Shown piece after piece: positions 6,001-12,000 of a stretch of 38,366 nucleotides of DNA. The position numbers are program-made. Where the stretch lies: the NCBI GenBank assembly GCA_039794845.1, contig JAUQVK010000083.1, positions 1-38,366 on the forward strand, read 5' to 3'. Every line of letters begins with the position of its first letter. Position 1 is the stretch's first letter. This stretch comes from Thermostichus sp. DRC_bins_24 (GTDB taxonomy: Bacteria; Cyanobacteriota; Cyanobacteriia; Thermostichales; Thermostichaceae).

Positions 6001-9000
6001 TCTTTTCAATCCTTCACCCTTCCCTGGGAAGCAGCCTTTACCACCCTGCGCCACCGGGAGCGGATCTTGCTCGACCTGCAGAACCCAGAACTTGCCCCTG
6101 CTCCCAGAACTCGGGCATGACACCCCGGTAGGCATCGAGAGGGAGATCATTCTGGGACTTTAGATTGAGGTTGAAAGAAAGTTGGAGGGCTCCGACCGAA
6201 GTTCTCTGAACTTGGGCTAACCTGAATGGTAGGTACAGCTCGTTTTGTCTTTGTAAAAGCATGAAATCTTTTACAGTTTCCCGACGCCGCCTGCTTCGGT
6301 GGGGAGCTTTGGCCACGGCAGGTTTGCTGACGGTTCGCAGCCAGGTTCAGGCTCAGCAGCGAGGGGATTTGACCCCTTTGGTTTACGGCACCAACTGGTT
6401 TGCCCAGGCTGAACATGGGGGCTTCTATCAAGCTGTGGCCAAAGGGTTTTATGAGAAGTTGGGGTTGGATGTCTCAATCCGGATGGGAGGAGGACGAACT
6501 CTGGGGGCACAGCTATTGGTGGGAGGCGCGGTAGATCTGTACATGGGATCCGGCTCCGGCACCCTCCGATCCGCGCAGCAGGGGTTACCCCTGATAACGG
6601 TGGCTGCCATTTTTCAGAAGGATCCCCAGGTATTGTTGGCACATCCCAATACAGGGGTGGAAGAGCTAGCCGATATTGTGGGCCGGCCCACCTACGTCTC
6701 GACCGCTGCTTTTAACACCTACTGGCCATTTCTGCGAGCCCGTTATGGTGTCACGGATGAGCAGACTCGTCCCTACAACTTCAACCCGGGGCCATTTCTG
6801 AGTGATCCTCAGAGCATTCAACAGGGCATCCTCACCTCGGAGCCGTTTGTGATTGCTCAAGAGGCCGGCTTTGAACCGGTGGTACTCCTGTTGGCGGACT
6901 ACGGCTACAACCCCTACTCTACGACGATTTTGACCACCCGATCCTTGGTTCAGCAGTCGCCAGAGGTGGTAGAGCGATTTGTGGAGGCCAGCATCGCCGG
7001 ATGGTACGACTATTTTGAAGATCCCGAGCCTGCCTTTGGGCTGATCAAGGCAGATAATCCTGAAATGAGTGATGAGCTGTTGGCCTATGGGTTTGAAAAA
7101 ATCCAAACCTTTGAGCTGGCTACCTCTGGGGATGCTGCCGATCTGGGCATTGGAGCCATGACCCACGAGCGCTGGCAGGAGTTCTATGACCTGATGGTGG
7201 AAATCGAAATTCTCGAACCCTTTGACTACCGGCAGGCCTACACCCTTGATTTTGTCAACAAGGGGGTTGAGTACTATCGGTCGTTGCAGCAGCAGTTGCT
7301 GACTTAAGTTCTAGTTCTGCGATTCTGCGCGATTCCACCTTCGGTCACAGCCTCAAAGCCTCTTAACCGTTAAGGGGAAAGGGAGATCCGGATCCGAACC
7401 TGTTCCCGCCGTTCTTCAAAATCGCTGATCAACAGGGCCAGATCAATCTGCCATTCCCCCGGCAAGGCTAGGGGCACATCCTTCAATTCAAATTGCCCGG
7501 ATTCATCCGGCAAAACCCTGCGGCGCAGGGGGGGGATCCCCTGTTCCGGCAACGAAAACCCCAGGGTCAACTCTTGGGCGGGGATCCCTTCCACCTTCAC
7601 CCGAATCTGATTCTCACCCGGACGACAGGGGGAAAGTTGGATGTGCAAGCTGCCCTCCGGCCAGTTCAAACTCTCTTCACAACCGGGCTCCGCCGGGGAT
7701 CCCATGCCATGACTGGGGGGAGCCTGGGCCACCAGAAAACTCGTCAAGGCCAGCACCAGGAGCAACCCCACCAACTCCAACCGGACGATCTGACGGAGGG
7801 ACTGCTGTACCGCCCGACTGCCCTCTTGCAGCGCAGGCACCAGCCGGAACTTGTTGTGGGCACCCAACCCCACGATCATCAACACCAAGATCGCCTTGGC
7901 CCAGAGATACTGCCCATAGGGATGATCCCAATCCCAACCGCGATGGATCCCGCCCATCCCCACCCCTGCCAGGATTAGTCCCGGCACCACCCAGGTGGCG
8001 AAGTCCGAAAACCGTCGAATCACGTTGGGGGATGAAGCAGCAGACTCCCCGCTCAACAGCCGATCCAACCCCCACAACCCCCCCAACCAAAAAGCAGATC
8101 CCGCCAGATGCAACCCCAATAGGGCCATTGTTACTAGGGGATACGGGCTGGTAAGGGCATGGCCAATCGGTAAAAAGGAGCCCATCACCAGCACCGATCC
8201 GAGGCCGCTGGCCCAACCTGCCCCTCCCTCGCAGGCCCAGATCAGGATCCCCAACCCCAGCAGCCGCAGCTCTAGACCCCAGCCGTAGGGGGATGCCAAC
8301 ACCGACCGCAACTCTGCCCCGGAAAACCGGGGGTATAACTGCGCCATGTGCAAACAAAAGGCCACCACCGTCAAACTAAGTGTCAGCCAAGCCGCCGCAA
8401 AGGCCCAAGATCGGGTTCCCAGGTTCAGCTGACCCCGCAGTACCCGCCACCAGCCCAGCACCCCTACCACAAACAGGCTGCCCAAGTAGACCCCCCAGCG
8501 CACCATCAGCAGCGGCCAGTACAAGGGATCCCTGGCCTGAGCGCGGGCTGCCAGCAGCGCCTGTAAGGCTTGCGGATCTGCCTCTCCCACTTGAAACACA
8601 AACGATCCGCTCACCGGATGGGAATCGGCAGAAATGGCCCGCCAACTGACGATGTAAATCCCCTCCGGGATCCCTTCCGGTAAATCCGCCTGTGGCCCAT
8701 CGCCGGTGGCTAAAAGATTCTCCAATTCCAGAGCTTGTCCGGTGGTATCCAAAACCTGTAGCTGAGTGATTTGTACCGACTCATTAAACTGCAGCCGAAT
8801 CTGTGTCGGGGCCTCCTGTAACACCGCTCCATCCGCCGGGAAAGTAGAGAGCAAACTGGCATGAGCGAAACTGGGTTGGATCCCTGTCAGCCACAGCAAC
8901 AGACAGAGGATCCCGATTAGGATGGACTTGAAGAAATAAGGCATACCCCTAACAACAAGTTTTGCGTGAACAAGGAAAGTATCTAATCCGTGAGATAACT

Positions 9001-12000
9001 GCCATGACAACCGATACCGATCTCCTCCAAACACTCTCTTAAAAAAGAAGTTCTTCCCTCCTGGAAGGCTAGCCCTCCGGGCCCCACAGAGCGGGAATAG
9101 GAAGTAAAAGCCCTGCTGTAGAAAACCCGCGCAAGGGCTGTAAAGCGAGATTTTGAAGGCATTGGCCCAATCGTGGAATATTCGGACATCACAATTTTAC
9201 CGATCTCTTTCTTGGATGCCGACTCAAATCAGCAGCGGCAGATAACCTCGAACTCAGAACCGGAGGCATTCGACCGTCCGCTGCATTTAAGTTGTTATGT
9301 GGCGGCCTTACTTACCATGCTACCGTTTGCAAATTTTCTACCTCTTGAAAATGAGCATCGCGTGTTACCAGAATCAGACCGTGTCGTAGTGCAAGGGCTG
9401 CAATCCAGACATCATTTTCAGGCAATGGACGACCTTTTAGCCTCAACCTGTTCTTGACCTCGCCATATTGCCTAGCTGTTTCAATATCACATCCAAGTAC
9501 TACGCTGTTAGCAGCCAACTCATCAACTCTTGTTAAAGTCGAGCAAAAACCTACCACTCGTCAACATCTATCCGTTCACAATCTTGCTCGATGGCCTCGC
9601 ACATCAACTGAAGGTCATCAGAAAGAATTGAACCAGAGAAAGGCAACAATTGCTGTCCTGGTGTACCTCGAACTTCCGCTTTTACCAGCGCTCGAACGAA
9701 TTCAAGCACCTGCTTTTGCAAGGGCTGGGGTCCCGCGTAGCCAGAACAGGAAGCATAAGCTCTGTCGTAGAAGGCCCGCGCAAGGGCTGTAATACTGGCA
9801 GAGGGTTATAGGGGTTGCCTTTGCCGAGGACTTCAGCCGCATAACCCTGAACTCACCTGCCACTAGTCGGGAGTCGTTCACCATTGCAAGGGTTTTGCCC
9901 AGCCTCTTCCGGTTCGGGAGCCTAAGGGTGGGAGTGGCCGTGGGAATGCCCATGACTGTGACCATGCCCATGGGCGGTTGGATTCTCTGTGAGCTTCAAC
10001 AGTGGGGCCGGTTCCGGCAGATCGTGGGGATCCTCACCCGGTTGGGCCACTTGGATCCAGCGGTGGATCCCTGTTTCGCACTCTTGCACCACCGGGATAG
10101 GAATGGTCTCGCCGGGCCGATCCGGCAACTTCAAAAGGATGCTGAATTCATCCACAAACTCATCTGGCAGTAGCCCACCCGACCAAATCACTTCCGCGAC
10201 GGTTTCGGTGATCATCCGCCCGTGGGATTCGTAGGGGGTTTCCAGCGGCTTTTTCACGGTCTCAATTTCCCACAGGGGGTGCACCATCGGCTTTACCGAA
10301 GTCGCCCCCTCCGGGATCTGCACCCGCAACCGGGTGGTTGGGGATCCCTCACAGCCGTGGGGAACGCGAAAGGTTAATTTGGCATGGCTACCGGCAGGTG
10401 CCTCTTTGGGGTTAACCGTGACATGGGCAAAAGCGGGGGCAAGAGCCAGAAAAGCTGAACCCAAAGTTAAGCTAAGCTTTGCTCCCAAGGACAAACGATT
10501 CTGCGACTTCAACATTAACTTCAACATTATTGTTACTCCTCAAGGGTTATGGTTGCTGTGAATCTTGAACGCAGGCTCTAGGGATGCTGGTGATGGCCGG
10601 ATCCCTCGGATTGGATCACGCTCATGCTGTGCTGACCCCAACTGGATAGGCCCATGGAGACCAATCCTGCACTGACCAAACCCATGGATACCAACCCGAA
10701 AGACAAAGCCCCCATCGCCACTAGGCCAATGGAGACGATGCCGTGGGTGACCACCCCAACGGCCACTACCCCGTGGGCCGAGATGCCAACCGCCACCAAG
10801 CCATGAGCCCCCACCCCTACTGAGAGGATTTTTCGGGGAGTGGAATGGCCGCAATCGCCCGTTTCAGAGGGTTTTGGGGAAGCAATTTCCGACTGTGATC
10901 CCGTCAGCATTAGGCTTTACCCCAGTTGCGCTCAGCTTGTTGCAGCACATAGGCGGCAACGGACTCGATCTCTTCCGGCTTCAGTTGCTTGCCAAAGGCA
11001 GGCATGGCTCCTTTCCCCTTCGTGACTTGGTTTTGAATCAACTCCGGGGTGTCCACGTGGTATTCCTGCAAAGCGGCTAGGGTTAGGTTTTTGGCGGCGA
11101 CCAGGGAGTTTCTTCCCCCCAGATGGCAACCGATGCACTTGGCCTGAAACACCTTTGCCCCCAGGCTCAGATCAGGCTCCGCTGCAGCAGGATGGACAAA
11201 TCCCAATCCCAGCAAGCCAATCAGAAGGGCTACCCCTAGGGTTTTGAAAATCCATCTTTTGAACATAGACGCATTGCCAGCTCTAACAAGGATTCTTGAC
11301 CCCGACATTGTTTCAGCCCCTGACGGCTGCGTCAAAAGACAGCCCGTCAACTCAGCCCCGGATACCATAGGGTCAGGATCCCCAAACCGGTGATGAGTGG
11401 TCTGCCCCCCGAAACGATCAACCTGGTGCGCCAAAAGGCCGATCTCGTCGAGGTGGTGGCTGAAAAGGTGGTGCTGCGCAAGCAGGGCAAAAATTTTGTC
11501 GGGCTTTGCCCCTTCCACAACGACCGCAAACCCAGTTTTCAGGTCAGCCCCAGCAAACAGATCTACAAGTGTTTCTCCTGCGGTGCTGGAGGGGATGTAC
11601 TGCGCTTTGTCAGCCAGATGGAGCATCTCTCCTTTGCCGAGTCGGTTCGCAAGCTGGCTCAGCGTTACCATGTGCCCCTGCCTGAGGGATCCCCGCAGCA
11701 GCAGCAAGCCCACGAACGCAAATTCTCCCACCAAGAAAAGCTGCTGGAAATCTTGGCCATGGCTGCCGATTTTTATCAGCACGCCCTCAAGTCCCCGTTG
11801 GGATCCGCCGCCCGGCACTATTTACAAAACCGCCAACTTGGCGAAGCCACGCTGCAAAAATTTCAAATTGGCTTTGCTCCCCCCGGCTGGCAATCCCTTT
11901 ACGAGTACTTGGTCCATCAAAAACGCCAACCCGTTAAGCTTTTGGAAGAAGCAGGGTTGTTGGTGGCCCGTCAACAGGGATCCGGCCATTACGACCGTTT

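Follow-up and report, generated by a model that had tools for sequence, protein, structure and literature searches.

The closest described counterpart of the locus analysed here is the PetRP regulon of Synechocystis sp. PCC 6803 (10.1101/2020.07.31.226407), which comprises four genes and no transporter; there, a GAC-N5-GTC core and a TTTGAC repeat lie over the petJ -35 hexamer, and petE is repressed through a site in its promoter. A review states that this regulon has no copper-homeostasis output (PMC10141476); according to another, cyanobacteria have just one well-characterised importer dedicated to copper, CtaA (PMC12292863). That PetP is idle and PetR accumulates when copper is short has been demonstrated in Synechocystis only. 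Among copper-uptake modules, the nearest are ycnKJI of B. subtilis, the alphaproteobacterial ycnI-copCD pairs (S. meliloti pSymA; L197), the E. coli AZY system (YobA, YebZ, YebY) and pcuABCDE of B. diazoefficiens, whose last two genes we take to be DUF1775 and CopC-CopD. A study cited in PMC6669012 describes pcuABCDE as a copper-starvation operon.

The window, a stretch of 38,366 nucleotides of contig JAUQVK010000083.1 from Thermostichus sp. DRC_bins_24, carries at positions 7370..11360 an operon whose four genes all lie on the minus strand. Family matches bear out the gene order given in a preliminary description of this DNA:

11390-13300, plus strand: dnaG, divergent neighbour outside the operon
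11331-11350, minus strand: PetR-type activator box TTGAC-GGGCT-GTC-TT-TTGAC, with GAC-N5-GTC core and TTGAC direct repeat
11307-11312, minus strand: candidate -10 hexamer at 17-bp spacing from the -35, with 9 of 12 consensus positions matched
10910-11266, minus strand: petJ, cytochrome c6, 118 aa, matching cytochrome c families; CXXCH at 44-48, Met88, Gln80
10578-10910, minus strand: GLTT-repeat protein, 110 aa, 10-residue glycine repeats
9922-10527, minus strand: cutI (YcnI/DUF1775), 201 aa, signal peptide, His35, PHGC motif, Trp157
7370-8944, minus strand: cutJ, 524 aa, YcnJ-like fusion of CopC and CopD ending in a beta domain

The genome shares petR-petP, petJ, petE and the box with Synechocystis, but here the box heads genes for copper binding and transport as well as a predicted small RNA, and petE lacks the promoter site. 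From sequence comparison, we consider the locus to be probably a copper-limitation operon activated by PetR, within a wider copper-saving regulon.

The petJ product has the residues of a cytochrome c6 (Cys44, Cys47, His48, axial Met88), including Gln80, which we take to be equivalent to position 52. A Gln at that position is a cytochrome c6 criterion in PMC8358224. The score of the petJ product against the PetJ equivalog NF045930, 123.9 bits, falls below the cut-off of 135, yet this is still the best family by far. A search for a second cytochrome c6 in the genome gave none at E<0.03, and petR, petP and petE are all present, with HEXXH and the Met-x5-Met loop, so that the earlier account of g02134 as the only cytochrome c6 beside petRP and petE holds. 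The genome further encodes an oxidase subunit II and two copper P-type ATPases. The GLTT start overlaps the petJ stop, and each 10-residue unit of the GLTT protein has a His and then a Met at a fixed position. A fold model of this protein (pLDDT 51) was discarded, and a structure atlas gave GLTT clusters alone.

The box lies 64 bp upstream of the petJ ATG and contains both GAC-N5-GTC and TTGAC-N9-TTTGAC, as had been proposed; its first repeat, TTGAC, is one T short of TTTGAC, and core and repeat together place it in the PetR-type motif (10.1101/2020.07.31.226407). Its downstream TTGAC is the predicted -35 hexamer in a promoter consensus scan (TTGACG-17-AACAAT), a weak signal when taken alone (3 such sites found against 1.6 expected), and the -35/-10 spacing is equal by eye in several relatives. 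From word frequencies, 0.46 loose or 0.04 strict boxes would be expected per genome, and two were found. The loose 18-mer alone is no commoner than its backwards control, so the case for the box rests on position and conservation: it precedes petJ in 11/11 genus relatives.

The unit petJ-GLTT-cutI is kept behind the box in all 11 of these relatives, whereas cutJ follows cutI in only seven, the intact ones, where dnaG is again the neighbour. In the other four (G004, G005, G010, G011), the operon ends at cutI and cutJ adjoins groEL, with no box within 700 nt of the relocated cutJ in the two readable cases. The order petJ-GLTT-cutI-cutJ, previously given for 4/4 relatives with gaps of 0-20 bp, is therefore found in 7/11, and the gaps are -1 for petJ-GLTT, 44-82 for GLTT-cutI and -14 to 19 bp for cutI-cutJ. 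CutJ matches occur in 12/12 genus genomes as stated before, the G011 copy being without its CopC part; outside the genus, CopC is present in 3/18 other genomes of the order Thermostichales (two had been counted) and in 14 of 401 sampled genomes of the class, for which 13 of 2401 had been given earlier, all 14 within Thermostichaceae. The CutJ tree, with 4/14 branches well supported, names no donor. A genome scan for CutI relatives kept 80/146, the majority from Micromonospora; the peptide words that it used bias this result.

Several features suggest that CutIJ imports copper, which we regard as likely. The key residues of CutJ (His27, Asp106, His108, His261, His278, numbered from codon 2) are invariant in 11 CutJ. 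The CopC domain starts with HA and carries DxH as in YcnJ CopC, and belongs to the single-Cu(II)-site class; among solved structures, the YcnJ CopC domain 9c14 matches it best in both sequence and fold. The two copper histidines of CopC and the two of CopD are all retained in CutJ: for CopD, His278 corresponds to YebZ His154 by alignment and GH261 to the YebZ GH135 motif. Both CopD histidines needed for uptake in E. coli AZY therefore have counterparts in CutJ, although here CopC is fused, DUF1775 replaces YebY, and identity is 28% over 138 residues only. In CutI, the N-terminal His35 and Trp157 are those of a mono-histidine brace as set out in PMC8424229. The protein has PHGC where 3esm has PTE, no YcnI Glu at the aligned place, and a His-rich C-terminal tail without membrane helix or anchor; it shares the PHGC subtype with alphaproteobacterial YcnI, at 44-52% identity.

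The label "Bacillus-type" applied to this pair is only partly apt. The CopC(C0-1)-CopD-beta plan, the DUF1775 partner and the expected induction by copper shortage are shared with B. subtilis ycnKJI. In contrast, the order here is I then J, no YcnK or other regulator lies in the operon, the activator would be one degraded in copper, PHGC replaces the Glu site, the anchor is absent, and the C-terminal domain of CutJ (predicted all-beta, 421-519) has no YtkA Pfam match. In gene order, DUF1775 site and missing anchor, the pair resembles alphaproteobacterial ycnI-copCD more than Bacillus, but unlike those pairs and pcuABCDE, the operon has no TonB receptor or PCuAC gene and is joined to a photosynthetic carrier.

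The same proteins could be read differently: in an operon still activated by PetR, CutIJ and GLTT might supply a client with copper (oxidase CuA or the maturation of plastocyanin) or serve as a copper store, with the beta domain as a YtkA-like chaperone. The YcnJ YtkA domain supports Cta oxidase (PMC13344008), YcnI may sequester copper (10.1101/2025.05.23.655588), the S. meliloti ycnI-copCD lies two genes from cbb3 oxidase assembly genes, and the CutI tail and the His/Met ladder of GLTT would suit such a role. We nevertheless find it unlikely as a replacement for import, given the retention in CutJ of the CopD histidines required for YebZ uptake and the lack of a YtkA match, and the two roles can coexist.

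That the box governs uptake genes is supported from outside the genus, in genomes that are kin, so that the counts stand for few independent events. All three other-genus carriers of cutI have it behind its own box, in three layouts: with no petJ nearby (G029), with petJ and cutI each behind a separate box (G028), and divergent from petJ with petRP alongside (G025). In G026 and G027, mbnP-mbnH takes the slot divergent from petJ, and across the 30 genomes of the order, 10/10 mbnP genes lie just behind a box; all 23 family genomes carry cutI or mbnP. Of 18 loci with GLTT relatives outside the genus, seven are preceded by a box and four more have one through a boxed PepSY_TM-GLTT pair; none was seen in the remaining 7/18. 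Other boxed genes include PepSY_TM and DsbD_2 proteins; PMC13038864 reports a PepSY_TM protein induced by copper starvation in another bacterium. With boxed cutI lacking petJ and boxed, unrelated copper-acquisition genes across order and class, PetR control of uptake gains evidence.

These counts also bear on whether the box could serve petJ alone, leaving GLTT, cutI and cutJ as passengers and CutIJ in copper resistance or buffering. The position of cutJ, outside the operon in 4/11 relatives and 977 bp off here, would fit, and databases label such proteins "copper resistance CopC/CopD", CopCD being annotated for both resistance and uptake. Yet passengers would not explain the separately boxed cutI and mbnP, a single-site CutJ with uptake histidines is not what resistance would suggest, and a promoter on only without copper has the wrong sign for it. 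We therefore hold this reading to be improbable, and activation of petJ-GLTT-cutI by PetR to be very likely.

The distance from the cutI stop to the cutJ ATG is 977 bp, exactly as reported, and it is filled by the following elements:

9725-9800, no strand assigned: first copy of a ~90-nt repeat, located where the antitoxin-like remnant has its 5' end
9551-9721, minus strand: antitoxin-like gene remnant, overlapping the vapC start
9312-9557, minus strand: broken vapC (PIN), C-terminal half only in frame, PIN positions 57-118 of 120
9220-9299, minus strand: imperfect inverted repeat resembling attC, directly behind the vapC stop
9049-9155, no strand assigned: second copy of the ~90-nt genome-wide repeat, in the same orientation as the first

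The ~90-nt repeat has well over 100 copies in the genome. The 9551-9721 remnant has no Pfam match and is presumably antitoxin-like, from its position. Judged by the usual features of attC sites, the 9220-9299 repeat has an unrecognisable 3' core, a fold z of -1.5 and one related copy in the genome. An intact integron gene cassette (vapBC with attC) was rejected on these grounds and on the broken vapC; of the vapC attC cassette said to split cutI from cutJ, the 977-bp insert and the vapC sequence stand, but vapC is a fragment and the repeat is only attC-like. Elsewhere, the genome encodes an integron integrase interrupted by a stop.

Because of this insert and the location of cutJ elsewhere in 4/11 relatives, co-transcription of cutJ in this genome is in doubt, and we see the chances as evenly balanced. 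Uncoupling, with cutJ silent or driven from inside the insert, is a real possibility that we place slightly lower: the insert contains a promoter-like site (9222-9194) and a weak terminator-like hairpin (9067-9053), and the CutJ sequence most closely related to this one is a remnant, that of G004. However, both types of site occur at chance level, cutJ is full length with all key residues, and the insert genes read in the operon's direction. Among hot-spring and mat RNA runs, 24/24 listed hold 61-70% of the G002 operon words. On a relative's copy of the operon, contigs from four runs reach every one of the 30 bins and span the petJ/GLTT and cutI/cutJ junctions, but they also bridge the divergent petJ/dnaG; this bridging thus does not show co-transcription, and contig depth cannot rank genes.

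The preliminary description saw a doubled box before no other gene, which proved wrong in substance: a conserved GAC-N5-GTC-TTTTGAC lies at G000:C33:11213. This second box heads a conserved, terminator-capped predicted RNA of ~44 nt, the 5' end of which shows complementarity to petE at its ribosome site and start codon. Its 16-nt seed is invariant in 12 copies, a 7-bp hairpin, paired in 77/77 cells, precedes a U-run, and the neighbours of the locus differ among genomes. A conserved seed, own promoter and intrinsic terminator (clear in the genus only), with no conserved ORF, are features of small RNAs; Rfam gave nothing at 9 loci. A small peptide was rejected, the frame from the RNA's ATG being unconserved at 3 to at least 100 codons. 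In three genomes (G021, G023 and G024), mbn genes lie downstream of the seed, which might there act as a leader.

The distribution of box and seed argues for petE as the target. They occur together in 18/23 family genomes against 6/378 others; the target 9-mer is present at petE in 17/17 genomes with boxed seed and petE, none of which, this genome included, has a PetR core within 400 nt of petE (the described site lies between -35 and -10). All 7 genomes of the order with a PetR core at petE lack the 9-mer. Neither petE box nor seed is found in G006, G012 and G025-G027, G013 combines a box at petE with a sequence loosely fitting the seed pattern, and no compensatory RNA appeared at 4 one-mismatch boxes in G025-G027. 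The absence of a petE box, earlier listed as a weakness, is probably explained by the PetR-boxed RNA, and we favour, with reasonable though lesser confidence, repression of petE by this RNA.

The second box may instead be real while the sequence behind it acts on another mRNA, binds a protein or is a variant form of GGGATCCC, a repeat with 9146 matches over the two strands. The RNA is kept in G004 without a plastocyanin match; in a ranking of 3143 ORFs by duplex energy, petE shares fourth place, after sites based on GGGATCCC; the 7-mer core occurs 441 times; and no compensatory changes between seed and target were seen, the seed core never varying, with cognate RNA-petE pairs not clearly above non-cognate. 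Against this stand the perfect 12-nt match, found in the genome only at the RNA and petE, pairing of at least 16 nt in G001 and G007 (in G021, one wobble with longer pairing), a petE 9-mer that is invariant whereas petJ start contexts vary even within the genus, the joint change in G006, where box and petE target are altered and the seed has decayed, and the lack of a conserved reading frame. We regard a role other than pairing with petE as rather doubtful.

An RNA pairing with petE would have parallels. In the copper economy of green algae and plants, one regulator (CRR1/SPL7) likewise turns on a copper-free substitute and, in plants, a small RNA, and these regulators induce copper importers. 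The plant RNA miR398 acts against copper protein mRNA under a copper regulator (PMC7896320). Regulator and RNA are unrelated to those here, and whereas plants protect plastocyanin, it is the very target predicted for the RNA in this genome. Cyanobacteria also have photosynthesis small RNAs under transcription-factor control, such as IsaR1, that pair at ribosome sites. PsrR1 is of the same kind (PMC13421787), but the signals of both are light or iron, not copper, and the RNA here has no Rfam match.

In the mechanism that we propose, PetR accumulating under copper shortage would bind the box over the -35 and turn on petJ, GLTT and cutI, and also cutJ where the operon is intact. Periplasmic CutI and the CutJ CopC domain would capture Cu(II) at their N-terminal histidine sites, from which it would move on to the CopD histidines and be imported, as shown for YcnJ and YebZ. 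From the second box, the ~44-nt RNA would pair with petE across its ribosome site and start codon and stop plastocyanin synthesis, in place of the direct repressor site of other cyanobacteria. Electrons would then run on heme, and copper would be scavenged and kept for enzymes that nothing can replace, the heme-copper oxidase being an example. The link of cutJ to the promoter may be weakened or severed here by the 977-bp insert.

In our literature search, uptake genes controlled by PetR, an RNA against petE and a connection of GLTT with copper were the subject of no paper found, and the supplements of the PetR paper may already show some neighbours. There is perhaps an even chance that PetR is a general copper-economy regulator of cyanobacteria, acting in this early-branching family through CutIJ as a dedicated high-affinity importer (MbnPH in sister genera) and an anti-plastocyanin 44-nt RNA; this would be a bacterial parallel to the copper-microRNA circuit of plants, and GLTT would join the regulon as a new copper protein with a His/Met ladder. 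The genomes point to named modules for uptake controlled by PetR and to another means by which plastocyanin is repressed, and we infer from them a copper-saving programme wider than described so far. The box may also provide a lead to the function of unexplained families (GLTT, cyanobacterial MbnPH, PepSY_TM, DsbD_2), and the findings bear on the copper-controlled petE and petJ promoters used as tools.

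The predicted copper operon of Thermostichus sp. DRC_bins_24 (G000) and its promoter box lie as follows.

7370-11266, minus strand: petJ (cytochrome c6), GLTT-repeat, DUF1775 and CopC-CopD fusion genes, assigned by profile matches
11331-11350, minus strand: PetR-type box of 20 bp, 64 bp upstream of the petJ start

The box contains both a GAC-N5-GTC core and a TTGAC repeat, as reported at PetR-activated petJ promoters (Garcia-Canas et al., 10.1101/2020.07.31.226407). Its final TTGAC is a candidate -35 element, with a weak -10 at 17 bp spacing in a consensus scan. In line with the preliminary description, the genome encodes one petR-petP pair, one plastocyanin (petE) and no other cytochrome c6; an oxidase subunit II and two copper P-type ATPases are also encoded. 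A second cupredoxin-like gene (G000:C72:14909-15139, L016) has no box in the genome scan. All protein families of the operon and regulon are already known. We keep the preliminary names CutI (DUF1775) and CutJ (CopC-CopD) for the proteins called YcnI and YcnJ in the literature.

The mature chain of CutJ begins with His27 and carries a DxH motif at 106-108; the CopC domain of YcnJ has a single Cu(II) site of the same kind (10.1101/2025.05.23.655588). CutJ His278 is aligned to His154 of YebZ, and GH261 is matched by motif to YebZ GH135. Both CopD histidines of YebZ are required for copper uptake in E. coli (PMC11923076), and YcnJ function depends on its CopC and CopD histidines (PMC13344008). 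The five key CutJ residues are invariant across 11 sequences, and the predicted structure (pLDDT 72), in which two beta domains flank a helical bundle, has the YcnJ CopC as its best fold match. CutI keeps His35 and Trp157 and has no membrane anchor. The mono-histidine brace of Bacillus YcnI includes a Glu (PMC8424229), whereas CutI has PHGC at that place and is 44-52% identical to alphaproteobacterial proteins sharing this motif and the ycnI-copCD gene order. Judged from these residues, the earlier label of a Bacillus-type importer fits how CutIJ probably works, as YcnJI does, but not its appearance, which in motif, order and anchor is nearer the Gram-negative ycnI-copCD pair. Sequence comparisons showed no donor of CutIJ. 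Over consecutive 10-residue repeats the GLTT protein carries His three times and then Met three times, a pattern that hardly varies among 10 sequences and is plausibly a copper ladder. Distant GLTT relatives occur in 37 of 40 small-genome cyanobacteria (family f3).

The box and petJ-GLTT-cutI are conserved in all 11 other genomes of the genus, the first repeat being a complete TTGAC in eight and TCGAC in three. The full order petJ-GLTT-cutI-cutJ, given earlier for four of four relatives with full loci, holds in seven of these relatives; in the other four, the gene after cutI is one for an ABC transporter, and cutJ adjoins groEL. No box lies within 700 nt of the groEL-side cutJ in G004 and G010, the contig of G005 breaks off, and G011 has a cutJ copy without CopC. 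Successive gaps in the relatives are -1, 44-82 and -14 to 19 bp, so the 0-20 bp first given does not cover them all. The cutI-cutJ gap in G000 is 977 bp. The insert there had been called a vapC attC cassette, and it does hold an attC-like inverted repeat, but only the C-terminal half of vapC, together with an antitoxin-like remnant and two copies, in the same direction, of a ~90-nt repeat that matches the genome at well over 100 places. The insert is a decayed mobile remnant outside the copper system and is missing from all seven relatives with an intact operon. Copies of the repeat in the window (9049-9155, 9725-9800, 4054-4127, 29034-29079) were noted, and copies often lie at contig ends. 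An integron integrase above the family cut-off is found on other contigs (G000:C45:4741-5478, C40:6-125); it contains one stop and is truncated where a contig ends. The rarity claimed for this importer in Cyanobacteriia is borne out in our sample: CopC was found in 14 of 401 class genomes, all Thermostichaceae, and DUF1775 in 17, of which 15 belong to this family.

Does the box control copper uptake beyond petJ? Outside the genus, cutI-cutJ occurs in three genomes, each from another genus and each with a box of its own before cutI: the G029 locus lacks petJ, G028 has one box for petJ and another for cutI, and in G025 cutI is divergent from petJ, with petRP alongside. The slot divergent from petJ is occupied in G026 and G027 by mbnP-mbnH, families that are above cut-off for the pair in G020; MbnP is a copper-binding protein (PMC11951088). 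Immediately downstream of a box, mbnP was found in all ten mbnP-bearing genomes of the order.

L067, L070, L075, L077, L129, L132, L135, L140, L142, L144: boxed mbnP, mostly with mbnH

Every genome of the family (23/23) has cutI or mbnP, and two have both. A box governing petJ alone, with the other genes as passengers, is hard to explain because unrelated copper-acquisition genes recur behind the same box. GLTT relatives are present in 92 of 401 class genomes, and among the 18 best non-genus loci, which lie outside the order, a box is found upstream of seven, four more follow through a boxed PepSY_TM-GLTT pair, and seven have no box; petRP adjoins four of the 18. We inspected genes behind boxes in 60 regions, mostly with the strict form GAC-N5-GTC-TTTTGAC and a subset of all box matches. 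Besides petJ and mbn, these include DsbD_2 membrane proteins, PepSY_TM proteins, an NMT1-like ABC set and TPR genes, and some boxes have no clear gene downstream.

The boxed DsbD_2 proteins carry an HC.GMCG motif (L076, L078, L079, L130, L141, L145, L146, L150). The next gene usually encodes a periplasmic protein whose signal peptide is followed by a His; this protein also adjoins petRP in G104 and G120. PepSY_TM genes are boxed at L148, L153, L301, L303, L304 and L305, with GLTT next in four genomes outside the order. The NMT1-like set is boxed in G020 and G022 (L136, L138). A TPR gene recurs after petJ or straight behind the box (L056, L057, L075, L147, L152, L154, L157, L304, L316). At L313 (G237:C1:3254312), in a distant cyanobacterium, a box precedes an ABC permease and ATPase named by eye as iron-siderophore-type. 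Translated in frame in over-long gene calls (P0005; L057:5959-6040), the box reads FDRLSF, a quick marker of boxed genes in protein databases.

The statement that no other gene of this genome has a doubled box did not survive: the strict form occurs at two genome sites (0.04 expected), the second at G000:C33:11213.

G000:C33:11213-11305 (L061:1714-1806), plus strand: second box and ~44-nt RNA, between aroA and a DUF4332 gene, outside the window

A weak -10 follows this box. The next element begins at 11262 and spans about 44 nt: a 16-nt stretch (the seed), a hairpin and a U-run. The seed is invariant (12 copies, 11 genomes). All 77 cells of the 7-bp stem are paired, and the changes within it are one-sided throughout. 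The downstream gene varies among genomes, no conserved reading frame was found in the RNA, and Rfam gave no match. Twelve of the 16 seed nucleotides are perfectly complementary to the ribosome site and start codon of petE; this 12-mer is found nowhere else in G000. Box plus seed occurs in 18 of 23 family genomes versus 6 of 378 others of the class (control hits 4). In all 17 seed genomes with petE, the same 9 bases precede the petE ATG and no PetR core lies within 400 nt, which agrees with the preliminary observation of no box before petE. The 9-mer is absent from the remaining 12 genomes with petE, seven of which have a petE core, often just ahead of a -10. The reduced genome G006 (L334, G006:C9:96673) shows, at the equivalent position, a mutated box and a decayed seed; its petE ribosome site is altered as well. 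Several findings speak against an RNA directed at petE: no compensatory seed-target change was found, cognate RNA-petE pairs were not clearly best in a duplex comparison, petE ranks only joint fourth among 3143 ORFs by duplex energy, five genomes have neither petE box nor seed, G013 matches both loosely, and the genomes counted are kin. A further point against it is G004 (L118, L330), which retains the boxed RNA, petR and petJ with no plastocyanin match; either petE was lost recently or the RNA has a second target. Genomes of the petRP lineage without petE box or seed include G025, G026, G027 and G012 (L318-L320, L107). A seed-like word also lies within the leader of the NMT1-like ABC set of G022.

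What we observed directly is anatomy and conservation; the rest of the circuit we infer. PetR has been shown elsewhere to accumulate without copper and activate petJ, and PetP to cleave it with copper. PetR would activate both the petJ-GLTT-cutI operon and the ~44-nt RNA at the C33 box; CutIJ would import copper, as YcnJ and YebZ do via the corresponding histidines (PMC13344008, PMC11923076), while pairing of the RNA would repress petE, and copper may be spared for the oxidase. The published PetR regulon consists of four genes, with petE repressed directly (10.1101/2020.07.31.226407), and PetR-controlled uptake is unmentioned in the accessible portions of two reviews (PMC10141476, PMC12292863). 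In the literature searched, with subscription papers and preprint supplements outside the search, no report ties PetR to an importer or an RNA. The analysis also drew on PMC8358224, PMC3621798, PMC6669012, PMC13421787, PMC7896320 and PMC13038864. An importer and an RNA in the PetR regulon would be unexpected to specialists, and both are directly testable.
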